Origin: Candidatus Bipolaricaulota bacterium
GTDB taxonomy: Bacteria > Patescibacteriota > Patescibacteriia > UBA11705 > DATKZF01
Length of the DNA stretch: 64,000 nucleotides
Assembly: GCA_035528115.1 (NCBI GenBank)
Contig: DATKZF010000003.1
Span: forward strand, 292,651-356,650
Reading direction: 5' to 3'
The notes under the pieces are model-generated. The model searched no databases. It was not told the origin of the DNA and was given only the letters and a program-made list of their open reading frames with translations. This document shows positions 2,223 to 64,000 of this stretch, in pieces. The position numbers and the translations under genes were made by a program. The stretch's first letter is position 1; each line of letters starts with the position of its first letter.

Positions 2223-2353
2223 GTTCTACTGTGGAACACCATGAGCGATAATTGTCCCTCGACTTCCTGCCTGCCGGCAGGCGCTCGGGACACTCGACTC
2301 GTCATATGGTGGTACACCACGAGCGAGCCCGAGCAGCGCGAGGGCGAGTCGAG

Positions 2354-8045: not shown

Positions 8046-8222
8046 ATGCCAGCTAAAAAAAGAAAGAAAGCCGTGAAGAAGGCGGCTCCTAAGAGAAAGA
8101 AAGCAGTGAAGAAGACCGCGAAGAAAAAAGCGGCTCCTAAGAGAAAAAAAGCCGTAAAGAAGACCACTAAGAAAAAAGCGGCTCCTAAGAGAAAAAAAGC
8201 CAGTCGCAGAAAGAAAAAGTAG
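8046..8222 (+). CDS. Small basic Lys/Ala-rich repeat protein (58 aa), histone H1/Hc1-like DNA-binding candidate
   Basis: RBS AAAGGAGGTGA; AAPKRKKAVKKT repeated three times. It is absent from the ORF track because it is under 60 aa. The 7937..8239 minus-strand ORF is its antisense artifact. Confidence 0.6.
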   Translation: MPAKKRKKAVKKAAPKRKKAVKKTAKKKAAPKRKKAVKKTTKKKAAPKRKKASRRKKK

Positions 8223-10979: not shown

Positions 10980-11098
<119 letters not shown>

Positions 11099-11160
11099 TA
11101 CCTCTTTAAAATTGTTGCTTTAAAATAAACTTTCTCATTTAAGTGGTTATGCATTTGACT

Positions 11161-14156
<2,996 letters not shown>

Positions 14157-14534
14157 GCATAACCACTAAAATGAGAAAATTTGTACTGTTATATTGATTC
14201 TCCATAGTATGTTGATATACTCGACGAATAAATTGAAAATTTATTTGTCATTTTTTAATTGTCAATGATCATGAGACAACTTAATCGGAAATAAAAAAGG
14301 CATTCGCAGCTCTGAAATCGTTATCTTGTTCGAGCAAACGACTACCTGTGGATAATTTAAATTGTCTGTGAAACATTATACATTAAATAAACGAACCATG
14401 TCAAGCAGCAAACCTTTTGCTTCAAAACATTGACATTTTCGCTAAATTACGGTATAATTATTCAGTTACAAGATTAAAGTTTCTAGTTGAAAGTATGGGG
14501 TGATTTTTAATCCTACTGAACTTTAATCTAACAA

Positions 14535-14620: not shown

Positions 14621-14734
14621 TTCGACTCGGCTTTGCTGCGGCAAAGCCTCGCTCATGGTGTTCCACCACCTGCACAAGCGGGGCGAGGCGAATGCCCTGA
14701 GTGAGGAGCGGTAGTGACGAATCGAAGGGCATTC
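14621..14734 (+). repeat. Conserved tRNA 3'-trailer element (class 1)
   Basis: TTCGACTCG...CTCGCTCATGGTGTTCCACCACCTG...GAGGCGAATGCCCTGAG. Near-identical copies follow tRNA-Phe, tRNA-Gly(CCC) and tRNA-Ala. Confidence 0.7.
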
Positions 14735-17372: not shown

Positions 17373-17590
17373 TAAATCCAGCGGCATCGGTATTGAGGCT
17401 TGAACATTGAAATTCGTTATATCGAAATTCGAAATTGGCTATGGAAATTCGAGGTTCGAGATTCGTTTTAACCGATTTCCGACGTTCTATTTTCTATTAC
17501 TCTTCAGCTTCGCTCAGGACGGACGATTTTTCCTTCTAATTTGTAACCATTTGTAATATTTGTATTGATTTGTAAATTTGTAACCCCAAC

Positions 17591-22067: not shown

Positions 22068-23735
22068 CTAGTAGTTGCAGAAGTACCCGCCGTCGACCGT
22101 GTCAAACACCGCGTTGATGTTGGGGTACGTGGGCAAAACACACATGACTGCGTGTTCCCCTGGCGAAACGCAAGTCATGAATGGGGTCATCCCGGAAACC
22201 TCGTCCGGAGTGCCCGGATCGATGTACGCCGTAGGCGGGGGAGCCGACGTATTGCTGGTGATGCTCACCCATACCTTACCGGTCAGCGTCTCGCTGATCG
22301 GATCGCTTGACTGGACGTCGAACAACAGCGCTTTGTAATCCACGCAACTCGAATAAAACTCAAACACGTGGATTCCTGGACCAATCGCGATCTGGCAGTT
22401 GCCCGGCAATGTGGAGTTGCAGACCACGGTTCCGTCCAACCGCAGGGTAGACGACGGCTGGGAGGTGATCGGTACGGTCAGGTCTTCTGTGGCCGCGGCG
22501 AACGTCACGTCGAACGTGTTGTTCGTCGCATCGATGAACTCATCGAGAACGACCGGGACGAATCCCCAACTGTTCACGATGACCTCATGCTGTCCTTCCG
22601 GCACCTCCATGGAACATGGCGTGCGGCAGACAGCCGGCTCGTTGTCGATTGACACGACCGCGTCCGTGGGGGTGCTCGTCACCGTCAGGAGAACGGGCAG
22701 CATGGCCTCGAGCATGGCGTCCACGACGTAGTCGTTGTCCAAAAATGACTCAACCGTCTCGTCGTAGTACCCGTCGAGATTGAACACGTACGTATGAGCG
22801 CACGCGGTCTGCTCAACGGCCAGGCATGGAGTCGCTTCGCAAACAACTTCGCCGCCTTCAGTGACGGTCGCGCCGATCGGCTCGGACGTGAAATCGCCAA
22901 CCACGGTCAGCGGCACGAGTGTCACGTTGAACGCGAAGCTCGTTTCCGAGACCATGATCAAGATATCCTCCGAGACGAAGCACCCGGTCAAGTCAATGAT
23001 GTGCACGGTGTGCTGCCCCTCGGTCAGAGAGATCTCTGCCGGCGTATAGTTCGTGACCGTGTCATCATCTACTCGGAAATAGACTCCGATCGGCTCGGAC
23101 GTGATAGTCACGACCACCACGATCGGCGCAATGTCCGGCTGAACATCGACAGGAACCACGTCCACGGCCATGTCAACCGGCACATCCGGCTGCACGTCAG
23201 CCGGCACGTCCTCGGCCACGTCGATTAGCACGTCCGGCTGCACGTCGACCGGCGCGTCCTCGATCACGTCGGGCGTCACCTCCGGCTGAACTTCGGCCAA
23301 CGCGTCCTCGATCAGATCGACCGGAACGTCCGGCTGAACATCGACCGGAACATCTTCCACCAACTCCGGCGGAACGTCCGGCTGAACTTCGACCGGAATG
23401 TCCTCGACCACCTCGAGCGGCACATCCTCCGCCACTTCTACCGGAATGTCCTCGACCAGCTCGGCCGGCACATCCCGCGCGACGTCGAGCGGATGGAGAT
23501 CTCGCATGGGCCTGCTGTCAGCCTCTGCGTCTTCTTCCATGTCCGGAACGGTGGCGTCCTCCTTGATGTCCGGCAAGCGCGGGATGTCGGTGATGACCTC
23601 GAGGAAGTCCCCTCCGAAATCATGAGCCATTGCATCTTCCGTTTCGACCAGGCTCGGGCCGACCGTGGCCTCACTACCGCAAGCGGCGAAGAAAAGGCCG
23701 ACAAAAACAAAAAGAACAAATTGTCTCGGACTCAT
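22068..23735 (-). CDS. Secreted acidic-repeat lipoprotein with about five PEGA-like domains, GC-rich island 3
   Basis: RBS AGGAGGA-7-ATG; signal peptide plus lipobox-like FAACGS; about 120 aa of (E/D)DVPV(D/E)VQPDVP tandem repeats; repeated ITSEP..G..V..DG...G.TP..EGQH blocks. About 62% GC. Confidence 0.7.
   Translation of the reverse strand: MSPRQFVLFVFVGLFFAACGSEATVGPSLVETEDAMAHDFGGDFLEVITDIPRLPDIKEDATVPDMEEDAEADSRPMRDLHPLDVARDVPAELVEDIPVEVAEDVPLEVVEDIPVEVQPDVPPELVEDVPVDVQPDVPVDLIEDALAEVQPEVTPDVIEDAPVDVQPDVLIDVAEDVPADVQPDVPVDMAVDVVPVDVQPDIAPIVVVVTITSEPIGVYFRVDDDTVTNYTPAEISLTEGQHTVHIIDLTGCFVSEDILIMVSETSFAFNVTLVPLTVVGDFTSEPIGATVTEGGEVVCEATPCLAVEQTACAHTYVFNLDGYYDETVESFLDNDYVVDAMLEAMLPVLLTVTSTPTDAVVSIDNEPAVCRTPCSMEVPEGQHEVIVNSWGFVPVVLDEFIDATNNTFDVTFAAATEDLTVPITSQPSSTLRLDGTVVCNSTLPGNCQIAIGPGIHVFEFYSSCVDYKALLFDVQSSDPISETLTGKVWVSITSNTSAPPPTAYIDPGTPDEVSGMTPFMTCVSPGEHAVMCVLPTYPNINAVFDTVDGGYFCNY
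23093..23480. repeat. Tandem ~24-bp coding repeats (acidic DVPVDVQP array)
   Basis: cgtccggctgaacttcgaccggaa-like units iterated about 15 times. Confidence 0.75.
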
Positions 23736-30644: not shown

Positions 30645-30744
30645 CTTTACCACATTGATCTTTACAATAGAAAATTGATAGAAAGAAGTCCATTGTTTAC
30701 TTTTTTTCAGAGTTTTGACCAACTCTTTTCAAAATGGTCAAATT

Positions 30745-32231
<1,487 letters not shown>

Positions 32232-32464: not shown

Positions 32465-32541
<77 letters not shown>

Positions 32542-32631
32542 GCCTTCGCTAAAGCTTCGGCTGGCAGGCCAACTTTTAGAAATCGGTCCGATTCATCGGG
32601 ACTCCAAAATTTTTCACTTTTAACTTTTTAC

Positions 32632-32708
32632 GGGCGTGTAGCTCAGTTGGTTAGAGCGCAGCACTGATAATGCTGAGGTCATAGGTTCGATTCCTATCAC
32701 GCCCACCA
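32632..32708 (+). tRNA. tRNA-Ile (GAT)
   Basis: Anticodon loop ctgataa. Confidence 0.85.
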
Positions 32709-32774
32709 GCCTTCGCTAAAGCTTCGGCTGGCAGGCCATAAGATGCTTGCCCGACAAAGCCTTGGCGAAGTCGG

Positions 32775-32849: not shown

Positions 32850-32960
32850 TTCGACTCGCCCTCGGTGCCACTCGGGCTCGCTCATGGTGTGCCACCACCT
32901 GAATGTACGAAGTGAGGCGAGTGCCCTGAGTTTATGGAAGGGTTTTTTTATTTTTGTTTG
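32850..32960 (+). repeat. tRNA 3'-trailer element (class 1) copy
   Basis: TTCGACTCG...CTCGCTCATGGTGTGCCACCACCTG...GAGGCGAGTGCCCTGAG followed by a terminator-like hairpin and T-run. Confidence 0.7.
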
Positions 32961-33025
32961 TTATTTGATATTTGTTGTTTGGAATTTGTTTAGGATTTAG
33001 TGTTTAGAATTTATAATTTAATCCA

Positions 33026-33102
33026 CGGGGTGTGGCGCAGTTGGCTAGCGCGCTTGCTTTGGGAGCATGAGGCCGTGGGTTCGAGTCCCACCACCCCGAC
33101 CA
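33026..33102 (+). tRNA. tRNA-Pro (TGG)
   Basis: Anticodon loop tttggga with one mismatch in the anticodon stem; acceptor CGGGGTG. Confidence 0.75.
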
Positions 33103-33162
33103 GCCTTCGCTCCTCCTCGCTCCGCTCGTCGGGGCTTCGGCTGGCGGGCCAGCCAAAAAAAT

Positions 33163-34753: not shown

Positions 34754-34850
34754 CTCGACTCGGTCTTCGCAAGCTCAGACCTCGCTCGTGGTCTTCGACC
34801 ATTATTGACCGAGGCGAGTGCCCCGAGCATGCCGAGGGGCATTCTCAAAT
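34754..34850 (+). repeat. tRNA 3'-trailer element (class 1) copy
   Basis: CTCGACTCG...CTCGCTCGTGG...CCGAGGCGAGTGCCCCGAG followed by a GC hairpin. Confidence 0.7.
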
Positions 34851-60765: not shown

Positions 60766-61332
60766 CTATCCGAAAATACGCTTCTTCAAAACATTATAGC
60801 CATCGGGCTGTCTTAAGATTTTCGCCACGTCCACGGCGAAATCCCGTTCAAAAAATTCATCTGAAAAAACGATATTTAAAAATTCATCGAAATCAACCTC
60901 TTTTATTTCAATCTTCTCCCCGGGATCAAAATTTTGCTCGCCGATTTTCGCCGCGTTTCTGGCGACGTAGATAAAAATCGTCCAATCGATTTTGGATTCG
61001 GGTTCGTATTCCGCAAAAAGCTCCCAGTCATTTGTTTCCATGCCGCTTTCTTCTCTAAATTCCCTTTTCGCCGCTTCAAGCGGCTCTTCGCCCGCCTCGA
61101 TCCTGCCGCCGAAAAACGAATGGCACCAATCCATGTCGGGCTGCTTCTCGCGGGCGATTAAAATTTTATCTCCGACAGTCGGAATGATTTGCGCGGTGTT
61201 TGGCCGCTTGATCCGCTCGAAAGTGGCGCTCGAGCCGTCGAACATTTTCTGCTGCCATTGATAAACATCGAAAATTATTCCCTTGAAAACCTTTTTGGCG
61301 TCTTTTGGTATTTTCATAATTCTATATAACAT
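60766..61332 (-). CDS. NUDIX hydrolase
   Basis: Nudix box GGRIEAGEEPLEAAKREFREESG. Confidence 0.75.
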   Translation of the reverse strand: MLYRIMKIPKDAKKVFKGIIFDVYQWQQKMFDGSSATFERIKRPNTAQIIPTVGDKILIAREKQPDMDWCHSFFGGRIEAGEEPLEAAKREFREESGMETNDWELFAEYEPESKIDWTIFIYVARNAAKIGEQNFDPGEKIEIKEVDFDEFLNIVFSDEFFERDFAVDVAKILRQPDGYNVLKKRIFG

Positions 61333-61392
61333 TTCCCCAGATGCTAATGTTGCGGCATGAGTGAGCTGGAACGAAGCCAAATATTCGCAATT

Positions 61393-62277
61393 TTATTTTC
61401 CATAAACATTATCCAACAACCTGTTAAAAAAAGGAAAATCCTTCTTATCGTAGTGTTCGCTAATCATTGCCAAAACATCTTCTCTGCTTTTACTTTGATC
61501 TTTTAGATATTGAAATTGCTTGGTGAAGGTATAACGTTCAACTGGATTATTTGGATAGTAGACAGGCATTTTAATAACATCTTCATCAGTTGATTTAAGC
61601 AACTTCTTCATATCTTCAATTGCCTGTTTATCGCCTCCATGACTTTCAATTTGGCTAAGTTCATGTTCTAGATCTGTTCGAGAAATACTTGCGTATTGTG
61701 CGATATCCTCAAAAGCAAATTTTTGCATATTTCCGCGATAACTCTCAGGTGACTCAAAATCCAAAAAGTTTTGGCAATGCGCCAATTCATGACACAACCA
61801 AGCAATTTCATCGGGATTTCCCCGCGCTTCAAAATAACTCTGTTTGATTAAGATGAGTTGTTTTTCAGCACTTGATTCCGAGGGTTGGTTTCCCTTGTCC
61901 CATAAATCATCCGGGACCACCGCGATAGTAACTCCGTCTAATCTTTCATCATGAAGAGCCTCGCGTTGTGCTTTATATTTTGTTGGCAAATCCTTTGCTT
62001 TCAATAATCCTACTCTTTCAACAGCGCCTTCTTTTAAGCCAAGGTGTTCTTGCAAGTATTGTTTGGTATCGTTCTGTTCCAGAGGCCGCTCTAAGTCATG
62101 CGATACTCCGATCTCTGCTATTTTAGCGTCATCTTGTTTGTTTGCCTCTGCTCGCCCGGCTTCCACACCACCGGAACCCGGCTCCTCTGAATCGACAATC
62201 GGGGATTTTACAGGTTTTTCACCCTTTGGTAATTCAGGTTGTTGATCAATTGGTTTTGGTACTTTTTCAGCGTCCAT
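61393..62277 (-). CDS. Hypothetical acidic protein with an HExxH motif
   Basis: WLCHELAHC; no signal peptide. Confidence 0.45.
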   Translation of the reverse strand: MDAEKVPKPIDQQPELPKGEKPVKSPIVDSEEPGSGGVEAGRAEANKQDDAKIAEIGVSHDLERPLEQNDTKQYLQEHLGLKEGAVERVGLLKAKDLPTKYKAQREALHDERLDGVTIAVVPDDLWDKGNQPSESSAEKQLILIKQSYFEARGNPDEIAWLCHELAHCQNFLDFESPESYRGNMQKFAFEDIAQYASISRTDLEHELSQIESHGGDKQAIEDMKKLLKSTDEDVIKMPVYYPNNPVERYTFTKQFQYLKDQSKSREDVLAMISEHYDKKDFPFFNRLLDNVYGK

Positions 62278-62403
62278 ATTTTGTTTTTTATAATATTTTC
62301 TATTTTACTTAACTATCATTCATTAATATATTAGCATCGATCCGCGTCAACGAGCAATGATTGATTTTTTCACACGTTTATGCTATAATTCCTAAGATCG
62401 TGA

Positions 62404-62501
62404 TTTCATGTTTCATGTTTCATGTTTCATGTTTCATGTTTCATGTTTCATGTTTCATGTTTCATGTTTCATGTTTCATGTTTCATGTTTCATGTTTCAT
62501 G
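62404..62501. repeat. (TTTCATG)14 heptanucleotide microsatellite
   Basis: 14 perfect tandem units immediately 5' of tRNA-Ser, downstream of a TGcTATAAT -10 element. Confidence 0.95.
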
Positions 62502-62506
62502 AAAAT

Positions 62507-62596
62507 GGAGAGGTGGCCGAGTGGTTGAAGGCGCAGCTCTCGAAAAGCTGTAGGGGCGAAAGCTCCTCGTGGGTTCAAATCCCACCCTCTCCGCCA
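62507..62596 (+). tRNA. tRNA-Ser (CGA), class II
   Basis: Anticodon loop ctcgaaa, long variable arm, discriminator G, CCA. Followed by the 18-bp palindrome cgtcgctcgcgagcgacg. Confidence 0.85.
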
Positions 62597-62637
62597 CGTC
62601 GCTCGCGAGCGACGTGGCTCAGCCAATTTCCAAAATT

Positions 62638-63141
62638 ATGACAATGGAAAAAAAAATCGCGAAGATATTCAATCTCACCGATGAAAATTGGATGAAGCAC
62701 GCCAATCCATGGAGCGTCTGGACTCGATATTCGGTCTTGCCGATCATTGTCTTGGCTTTTTGGAGCAGGCTTTGGATCGGCCGGTGGTGCCTTATCCCTG
62801 CATTGATTTCTCTGGGCTGGATGTTTTTCAATCCGATATTTTTTCCAAAACCCAAGTCAACGAATAATTGGGCGTCAAAATCCGTTTTGGGCGAGCGCGT
62901 TTATTTGAATCGGGACAAGATAGCGATTCCAAAGCATCATAAATCTTTGCCAAAAATATTGAACGCGATTTCATTTTCCGGAATAATTTTGTCCGTTTGG
63001 GGAATCGTCGCGCTGTCCATCTGGCCGGCAATATTGGGCGTGACTTTGGCTTACTTGGGAAAAAGCTGGTATTTGGACAGAATGGTTTGGTTGTATGAAG
63101 ACATGAAAGAGCGGCCGGAATACAAAGCATGGATGTATTGA
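62638..63141 (+). CDS. Hypothetical membrane protein (167 aa)
   Basis: Start at MTMEKK after the tRNA; about four TM helices. The ORF-track N-terminal extension spans the tRNA. Confidence 0.5.
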   Translation: MTMEKKIAKIFNLTDENWMKHANPWSVWTRYSVLPIIVLAFWSRLWIGRWCLIPALISLGWMFFNPIFFPKPKSTNNWASKSVLGERVYLNRDKIAIPKHHKSLPKILNAISFSGIILSVWGIVALSIWPAILGVTLAYLGKSWYLDRMVWLYEDMKERPEYKAWMY

Positions 63142-63172
63142 TAAACAATTACGAAAATATTACTTTAAATGA

Positions 63173-63198
63173 TTCGCCGCTATCGGCGGTTTTTTATT
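63173..63198 (+). terminator. Intrinsic terminator
   Basis: cgccgctatcggcgg followed by TTTTTT. Confidence 0.7.
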
Positions 63199-63298
63199 GG
63201 ACGGCAAACCGCGCTTTTGATAAAATGAGTGTATCACCAAATTCTTTTCGGAAAAACAAAAAAAACTTCAAATAAAAACTAAAAATCAAAACGCCTTT

Positions 63299-63952
63299 AT
63301 GAAACAGCGGGGCACAAAATTAAAACATTACTTTTTAAAAGACATAAATCCGACCATTCGATTTTTGATAATGTCAGACACCGTTCTGGTGGGCGCGGCC
63401 GGACTTTTGGGCCCGATCTTCGCGCTGTTTATTGAAGGCTTCATTGATGGCGGCAACGCGGCGGTCGCGGGCGTGGCCGCGGGCATTTATCTTTTCACCA
63501 AAAGCGTTTTGCAAATTCCCATCGCGCATTTTATTGATAAAATAAGAGGAGAAAAAGACGACTTCTGGTTCATGTTCATTTTCACCATGCTGATCGCTTT
63601 CATCCCGCTTTTATATCTGGTTATTTCCACGCCTTTACAACTTTATCTCGTGCAATTTCTGCTCGGCTTCTTCACGGCCTTCACTTTTCCGACTTACATG
63701 GCTATTTTCACCCGACATGTCGATAAATCAAAAGAAGGCACGGAATGGGGCGTTTATTTCACGCTGACCGACCTAACCAGCGCCGCGCTGGCCACCATCG
63801 GCGGTTATGTGGCGGCCACGCAAGGCTTTCCCACTTTGATTATCACCGTCGTCGCGATATCGTTTCTCGGCTCCTTGCTCCTCTGGCCGATTAAGCCGTA
63901 TATCAGGCTGGCCAGAAAAAATAGGAGGAAGACTCGGCAAGCGCGAGCTTAA
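63299..63952 (+). CDS. Membrane transporter-like protein (MFS half-size-like)
   Basis: Six predicted TM helices, basic C-terminus. Confidence 0.45.
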   Translation: MKQRGTKLKHYFLKDINPTIRFLIMSDTVLVGAAGLLGPIFALFIEGFIDGGNAAVAGVAAGIYLFTKSVLQIPIAHFIDKIRGEKDDFWFMFIFTMLIAFIPLLYLVISTPLQLYLVQFLLGFFTAFTFPTYMAIFTRHVDKSKEGTEWGVYFTLTDLTSAALATIGGYVAATQGFPTLIITVVAISFLGSLLLWPIKPYIRLARKNRRKTRQARA

Positions 63953-64000
63953 ATCAAAAGCAACAGCAAACCGGCATTATAATATCAATTGCCGGTTTTA

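Follow-up and report, generated by a model that had tools for sequence, protein, structure and literature searches.

A heptanucleotide array upstream of a tRNA-Ser gene

The window (the whole 64-kb stretch of DNA that was analysed) contains a tRNA-Ser(CGA) gene and a gene for an HExxH protein on the opposite strand. As originally predicted, the two genes diverge from a common region, which is 229 nt long and intergenic. A heptanucleotide microsatellite is located within it, and the features of the locus are as follows.

61393..62277, minus strand: gene for a 294-residue HExxH protein that contains HELAH and has no Pfam match (open reading frame call; given as context only)
62290..62319, minus strand: best candidate promoter of the HExxH gene, ATGATA-18-TATTAT (consensus scan only; 9/12, weak)
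62361..62389, plus strand: sigma-70-type promoter TTGATT-17-TGcTATAAT, presumed to be the sole promoter of tRNA-Ser (consensus match)
62390..62403, plus strand: unique 5′ part of the leader with the presumed transcript start (placed by its distance from the −10 element)
62404..62501, plus strand: heptanucleotide microsatellite (TTTCATG)14, as RNA (UUUCAUG)14 (Tandem Repeats Finder and regular expression; identical in contig L001, described below)
62502..62506, plus strand: AAAAT spacer from the array to the mature tRNA 5′ end, the RNase P site (sequence)
62507..62596, plus strand: tRNA-Ser(CGA) with an encoded CCA end (ARAGORN; Rfam RF00005, 60.7 bits)
62593..62618, plus strand: 26-nt perfect palindrome GCCACGTCGCTCG/CGAGCGACGTGGC, which includes the CCA end and forms the 3′ trailer hairpin (sequence and fold)

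Tandem Repeats Finder describes the array as a period-7 repeat of 14.0 copies with 100% matches and 0 indels. A regular-expression search agrees, and the prediction of 14 perfect TTTCATG units at 62404-62501 is thus borne out. As in the long simple sequence repeats (LSSRs) of prokaryotes, a unit within the 1-11-nt range is repeated head to tail without interruption, and the 98 nt of the perfect array exceed statistical expectation. A perfect periodic tract of this length cannot have originated by chance. The other period-7 matches of Tandem Repeats Finder in the 64-kb window have at most ~8 copies and are mostly imperfect, and a second long perfect array was not found in the window by this program. 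Across the ~72 kb formed by the window and contig L001, one such array is present, and no heptamer richness is observed. The 3′ end of the array is separated by 5 nt from the mature 5′ end of tRNA-Ser.

Promoter, leader and predicted transcript

In a consensus scan of positions 61000-64000, the best promoter-like site is TTGATT-17-TGcTATAAT (10/12 plus TG), with the −35 element TTGATT at 62361-62366, a 17-nt spacer and the extended −10 element TGCTATAAT. The original prediction placed the array between an extended −10 element and the tRNA-Ser(CGA) gene, an arrangement that is supported by the promoter scan, ARAGORN and Rfam. The element TGcTATAAT is present as predicted, but it is located at 62381-62389 rather than at ~62374. 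The promoter is of like type to those of tRNA-Ala, tRNA-Leu and tRNA-Val in the window, which are near-consensus (TTGACx-17-TATAAT). Transcription most likely starts near 62396, ~7 nt past the TGcTATAAT element. The array would then make up ~98 of the ~110 nt of the leader, which we infer to be removed by RNase P. At other tRNA genes of the window, leaders measure roughly 40-70 nt.

The 5 nt between the array and the tRNA leave no room for a promoter downstream of the array, and because the upstream gene is divergent, read-through is excluded as a source of its transcription. On this reasoning, the array would be transcribed as leader. A promoter within the array was considered and rejected, because no periodic match closer than ~6/12 to the sigma-70 consensus was seen by eye. 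The plus strand through the array is open in 3/3 frames, with the translation (FHVSCFM)n. A peptide gene in the array was likewise rejected: the reading frame runs into the tRNA, lacks a Shine-Dalgarno sequence and was not called by the gene caller.

In the minimum-free-energy fold of the leader and tRNA, the cloverleaf and the 3′ palindrome are both intact. The leader RNA is predicted to self-pair through 4-bp CAUG:CAUG helices, with an energy of ~−31 kcal/mol for the 14 units, or ~−2.2 per unit. As single-stranded DNA, the array is predicted to fold likewise (~−12 kcal/mol), and this modelled fold would be compatible with slipped-strand intermediates. The array is located neither between the −35 and −10 elements nor within the open reading frames of the gene caller. 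Because it lies downstream of the −10 element and outside any open reading frame, a change in copy number would affect leader length only. Copy number had been predicted to alter both leader length and promoter spacing; the former part of this proposal stands, whereas the latter is not compatible with a position outside any core promoter.

tRNA-Ser(CGA) and the other tRNA genes of the window

Among the Ser codons in the long open reading frames of the window, UCG ranks first in use, with a share of 23% (13.9 per thousand). Based on this codon usage, tRNA-Ser(CGA) is a housekeeping tRNA for which an OFF state would be costly, and on/off phase variation of a gene that reads the commonest Ser codon is unlikely.

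In all tRNA genes of the window that were examined, a conserved trailer that pairs with the CCA end lies directly 3′ of the tRNA. These trailers are found at the following positions.

2316-2352 (minus strand), 14622-14659, 32851-32888 and 34755-34792: tRNA trailers
32539-32564, 32706-32731 and 33100-33144: tRNA trailers
62593-62618: tRNA trailer at tRNA-Ser

Type A trailers, TCGACTCG-hairpin-CTCGCTCRTGGTG..CCACCA, follow tRNA-Ala, tRNA-Leu, tRNA-Phe and tRNA-Gly-ccc, and their inner hairpins differ by compensatory changes. Type B trailers, CCAGCCTTCGCT..CTTCGGCTGG, follow tRNA-Val, tRNA-Ile and tRNA-Pro. Both patterns had 0 matches in shuffled sequence. The tRNA-Ser trailer is distinct from types A and B and has its own 26-nt perfect palindrome. 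Upstream of tRNA-Pro, a degenerate, T-rich stretch of period 7 with TTTGTTA and TTTAGAA units is observed at 32944-33020. It was rejected as an example of the same architecture because it overlaps a TTTAGG-17-TATAAT promoter-like site and is not part of a leader.

Several other features of the window were observed. The 23S-5S (10985-14164, minus strand) and 16S (30744-32229, plus strand) rRNA genes are unlinked, ~16 kb apart and on opposite strands, and a cluster of tRNA genes (Val-Ile-Phe-Pro) lies 3′ of the 16S rRNA gene. With 3,022 nt, the 23S match is longer than the model (2,925) and may contain an insertion. Degenerate GAAATTC-like and ATTTGTAAC-like arrays are found at 17409-17465 and 17538-17585, with a TTGACA..TATTAT promoter-like site downstream of them near 17590. 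Two tandem repeats with a 48-nt period, at 23157-23487 and 8075-8201, probably both code for repetitive protein segments; one is GC-rich (6.9 copies, 75% matches) and the other A-rich (2.6 copies, 91% matches).

The divergent gene and the host lineage

The array is located ~85 nt beyond the −35 element of the candidate HExxH promoter (62319-62290). The HExxH protein has 145 homologues of 45-67% identity, almost all of which derive from Patescibacteria-type metagenome bins. The closest homologues are at most 67% identical and their loci do not contain tRNA-Ser. Synteny is therefore not conserved, and the locus cannot be traced in relatives through the HExxH protein. Multiple PF18895 (T4SS_pilin) genes are observed in the neighbourhood of the HExxH gene. 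An identical HExxH protein in NCBI is labelled Candidatus Bipolaricaulota, a label that looks inconsistent with the gene content. The host probably belongs to the Patescibacteria.

Assembly support for the 14 copies

The ENA contig ERZ27256828 k141_4005742 (438 kb; L001) shows 0 mismatches to the window over 12,608 nt and contains the same 14 units, although it may be the source assembly of the window itself. Judging from the contig name, this is a MEGAHIT assembly with k=141, a length that exceeds the 98-nt array, so that single k-mers would bridge both flanks. In contrast, a Logan contig (k=31) with an identical HExxH protein stops after 4 units, in keeping with a repeat whose length exceeds k. 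The HExxH protein is encoded on seven contigs of 0.2-1 Mb, and the DUF6653 protein from the other side likewise on seven. The unique left flank of the array has 0 exact matches in JGI metagenomes.

It is extremely improbable that the tract or its copy number was made, collapsed or expanded by an assembler. The failure of the short-k Logan assembly to cross the array would be in line with an artefact, as would the possibility that both full copies that can be read are one and the same assembly. Such an origin is contradicted by the contig of apparent k=141 that spans the array, by the seven large contigs that carry each flanking gene and by the common occurrence of similar arrays across independent data sets.

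Copy-number variation in other TTTCATG arrays

An exact search of metagenomes for (TTTCATG)4 returned at least 120 loci, and those of the matches listed that recur with identical flanks in two or more contigs were tallied. In this set, the arrays of 4-5 units are invariant (5 loci, 12 contigs), whereas those of at least 8 units differ at 3/3 loci, with 14/13, 12/9 and 8/6 units. A geometry like that of the window is seen at locus L230, where (TTTCATG)8 ends 5 nt before a tRNA-Val(CAC) gene. Using the adjacent DnaN protein, this locus was found in three assemblies whose flanks are the same and whose arrays have 8, 8 and 4 units.

L263:3058-3113: tRNA-Val(CAC) array of 8 units
L264:3086-3113: tRNA-Val(CAC) array of 4 units
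L265/L230: tRNA-Val(CAC) array of 8 units

Contigs with 8 and with 4 units share 99.85-99.97% identity over 9.5 kb, and k=141 was used to assemble both kinds. At this locus, an inverted array of the CATGAAG type is located ~35 nt upstream of the forward array. With tRNA-Val included in the tally, variation is observed at 4/4 loci with at least 8 units and at 0/5 loci with 4-5 units (Fisher p ~0.008, hand-calculated). The tRNA-Val locus shows that a tRNA leader tolerates differing unit numbers. By analogy, these results from other loci, rather than from the window locus, support the expectation that a 14-unit array would be unstable, and the window array is probably unstable in length.

Heptamer arrays before genes elsewhere

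Among the matches listed, TTTCATG arrays of at least 4 units adjoin a start codon in the forward orientation at 29/110 loci, compared with 12/110 in the reverse orientation and ~10% of random positions. The last ATG of the array is often the start codon itself; the unit contains ATG, and the association with start codons is inflated as a result. The genes that follow TTTCATG arrays include rplF (twice), fusA, atpG, adk, topA, murG, clpP, dnaG and pilins. Arrays of (TTTCATG)4-5 were found at the following start codons.

L168 and L247: rplF
L186: fusA
L142: atpG
L220: adk
L155: topA
L172: murG
L153, L176 and L224: pilins

This start-codon pattern matches that of the published TAACTGA repeats. 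A Shine-Dalgarno sequence is not observed at the start-codon arrays of 4-5 units, and longest-frame calls at start-codon TTTCATG arrays would gain a spurious MFHVSCF N-terminus. Several contigs, among them L138, L196 and L214, contain 6-7 heptamer arrays of various units within ~12 kb. The named sources of arrays include a Parcubacteria MAG (L186) and Beggiatoa/Parabeggiatoa (L138). A preference for the TTTCATG motif itself was considered and rejected because viral contigs contain composition-matched heptamers just as often (4, 2 and 7 matches). The more than 120 metagenome matches thus reflect the general abundance of heptamer SSRs.

For comparison, control loci were collected from GTDB genomes with a tRNA-Ser 5′-half pattern (at least 120 loci from many phyla). 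A close relative was not found among them, with a best score of 70 for the 90-nt tRNA. The pattern proved too unspecific to trace the locus, and these loci served solely as controls. Period-7 arrays number 198 in 590 kb of the TTTCATG-seeded set versus 1 in 843 kb of control loci. In the control genomes, a short-unit array is located upstream of 1/187 tRNAs. This array, (TTAATNG) with ~6.6 units (L040:131-176), ends 4 nt before another tRNA-Ser(CGA) gene (minus strand, 37-126); upstream of the array is a promoter-like site, TTGAGC-17-TGnTAAAAT. The spacer between array and tRNA is 5 nt in the window, 5 nt at the tRNA-Val gene of L230 and 4 nt at L040.

Interpretation of the array

The array is proposed, with a probability of about 0.68, to be a genuine, slippage-prone heptanucleotide SSR that is tolerated in the discarded leader of tRNA-Ser(CGA). 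A heptanucleotide repeat would have expanded inside the 5′ leader of this gene. The precursor would begin with ~110 nt that comprise a short unique stretch, (UUUCAUG)14 and AAAAU, all of which would be cut off by RNase P. Slipped-strand mispairing would be favoured by the perfect 7-nt periodicity of the array and by the CATG palindrome that each unit contains, and drift in copy number is therefore expected. Such drift, between cells and between strains, would alter the length of the leader alone. The effect on tRNA supply would be nil or graded rather than on/off, and the array would be a near-neutral, largely tolerated product of mutation. Against such tolerance, an array of 14 perfect units in a genome that is small and compact could owe its persistence to selection. 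In addition, arrays located 4-5 nt before a tRNA in three unrelated contigs (the window, L230 and L040) hint at something beyond accident. Finally, both readable copies of the locus have 14 units, although they may come from one assembly.

The original prediction regarded the heptamers as substrates for slipped-strand phase variation. Copy-number change does occur in natural TTTCATG arrays, but the use of UCG codons disagrees with on/off switching of tRNA-Ser(CGA). A phase-variable switch, in which slipped-strand changes turn tRNA-Ser(CGA), the HExxH gene or both on and off or modulate them strongly, is considered unlikely, even though arrays of at least 8 units are polymorphic elsewhere and the array and the HExxH gene have an intergenic region in common. 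An experimental precedent is also available in the 7-bp upstream repeat of Haemophilus influenzae hmw1A/hmw2A (PMC2424069). However, the array is located outside the −35 and −10 elements of both candidate promoters and outside open reading frames, and loss of the tRNA that reads the commonest Ser codon would be costly. The regulated gene has no evident surface or host-interaction role, and the presence of 4 or 8 units at the tRNA-Val locus of near-identical genomes looks like drift. By analogy with hmw, a graded effect is at most what would be plausible at tRNA-Ser. Likewise improbable is an alternative in which the leader is a functional platform for pre-tRNA processing or stability: its repeats would be bound by a factor that recognises RNA or DNA, or the leader would act through its structure or its lack of structure. 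It would agree with the forward bias of start-codon adjacency (29/110 versus 12/110 reverse, among the matches listed), with the housekeeping genes and pilins downstream of metagenome arrays, with the like geometry of TAACTGA repeats (PMC4679880) and with the three independent arrays that end 4-5 nt before a tRNA. At some loci, the forward array is also preceded by an inverted one, and the two could pair. In contrast, the window has no inverted partner array like that of L230, and a single array in ~72 kb gives no sign of a regulon. Moreover, the enrichment at start codons is partly built into a unit that contains ATG, TTTCATG is no commoner than its composition-matched permutations in viral contigs, and a role related to translation is not applicable to a tRNA.

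A more far-reaching proposal is that hypervariable heptamer arrays that fill the leader to within 4-5 nt of the mature end are recurrent in the tRNA genes of uncultivated small-genome bacteria, where they would serve as rheostats of RNA maturation that are heritable yet rapidly adjustable. The efficiency with which RNase P releases tRNA-Ser(CGA) would be set by leader length and CAUG:CAUG self-pairing, decoding of the most used serine codon would be tuned across the population, and arrays would also stand before housekeeping mRNAs. Taken as a whole, this proposal is very unlikely. If leader length affects tRNA yield, the locus would be the first at which slippage heritably tunes a tRNA and not a surface protein, and the heptamer repeats directly before housekeeping genes in several uncultivated lineages would be tied to RNA maturation and not to translation alone; the present evidence does not reach that significance. 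If, as preferred here, the array is merely tolerated in the leader, its use would be to mark strains and to caution assemblers, given that short-k assemblies break at it.

Comparison with known repeat systems

Prokaryotic LSSRs consist of head-to-tail units of 1-11 nt, extend far beyond chance length and are proposed to arise by replication slippage, as outlined in PMC4679880. According to Mrazek et al. 2007, as relayed there, heptanucleotides are the most abundant LSSRs with 5-11-nt units in most repeat-rich genomes. The same account describes heptanucleotide LSSRs as mostly intergenic because the number of nucleotides in their unit is not divisible by three (PMC4679880). The window array is the same in kind; its position in a pre-tRNA leader and its small-genome, uncultivated host, probably of the Patescibacteria, did not turn up among the published examples found. 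The TAACTGA repeats are related to the cyanobacterial STRR heptamers. They are located directly upstream of start codons, including those of fusA and ribosomal protein genes (MacGregor 2015, PMC4679880). Their hosts are Beggiatoaceae, cyanobacteria and Bacteroidetes, and they are proposed to be post-transcriptional regulatory sites; tRNA genes are not named as targets (PMC4679880). Like TAACTGA repeats, the metagenome (TTTCATG)n arrays are intergenic, forward in orientation and end a few nucleotides before a functional gene start. The geometry of the window array is analogous, as it ends 5 nt before a functional 5′ end. TAACTGA genomes, however, have tens to hundreds of arrays of one unit, usually of 2-6 copies and before start codons, whereas the ~72 kb studied here have one array, of 14 copies, and the gene downstream of it is a tRNA gene rather than one with a start codon.

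In H. influenzae, hmw1A and hmw2A are preceded by 9-28 copies of a 7-bp repeat, and more repeats lead to less mRNA (PMC2424069). The window array shares with them the 7-bp unit, a similar array size and a location in the upstream or promoter region, between a promoter, here a consensus match, and the start of the gene. At hmw, the copy number varies among isolates and grades the transcript level without a shift in reading frame. In H. influenzae, a host-adapted pathogen, the repeats stand before the mRNA of an adhesin and have a measured effect on expression, whereas the window array precedes a housekeeping tRNA. In the Moraxella catarrhalis example mentioned in PMC4679880, 6-23 copies of AGAT in the 5′ UTR of uspA2 modulate expression. 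As in the window, a short tandem repeat is located between promoter and gene start. As presented in that source, the uspA2 repeat has a strain-dependent copy number and differs from the window array in being a tetranucleotide, in preceding the mRNA of a surface protein and in having been verified experimentally. A description of heptamer repeats in Patescibacteria, or of SSRs upstream of tRNA genes, was not found in the literature. In kind, the array is a common bacterial repeat; its position, the leader of a pre-tRNA, is unusual and undescribed in the literature searched.
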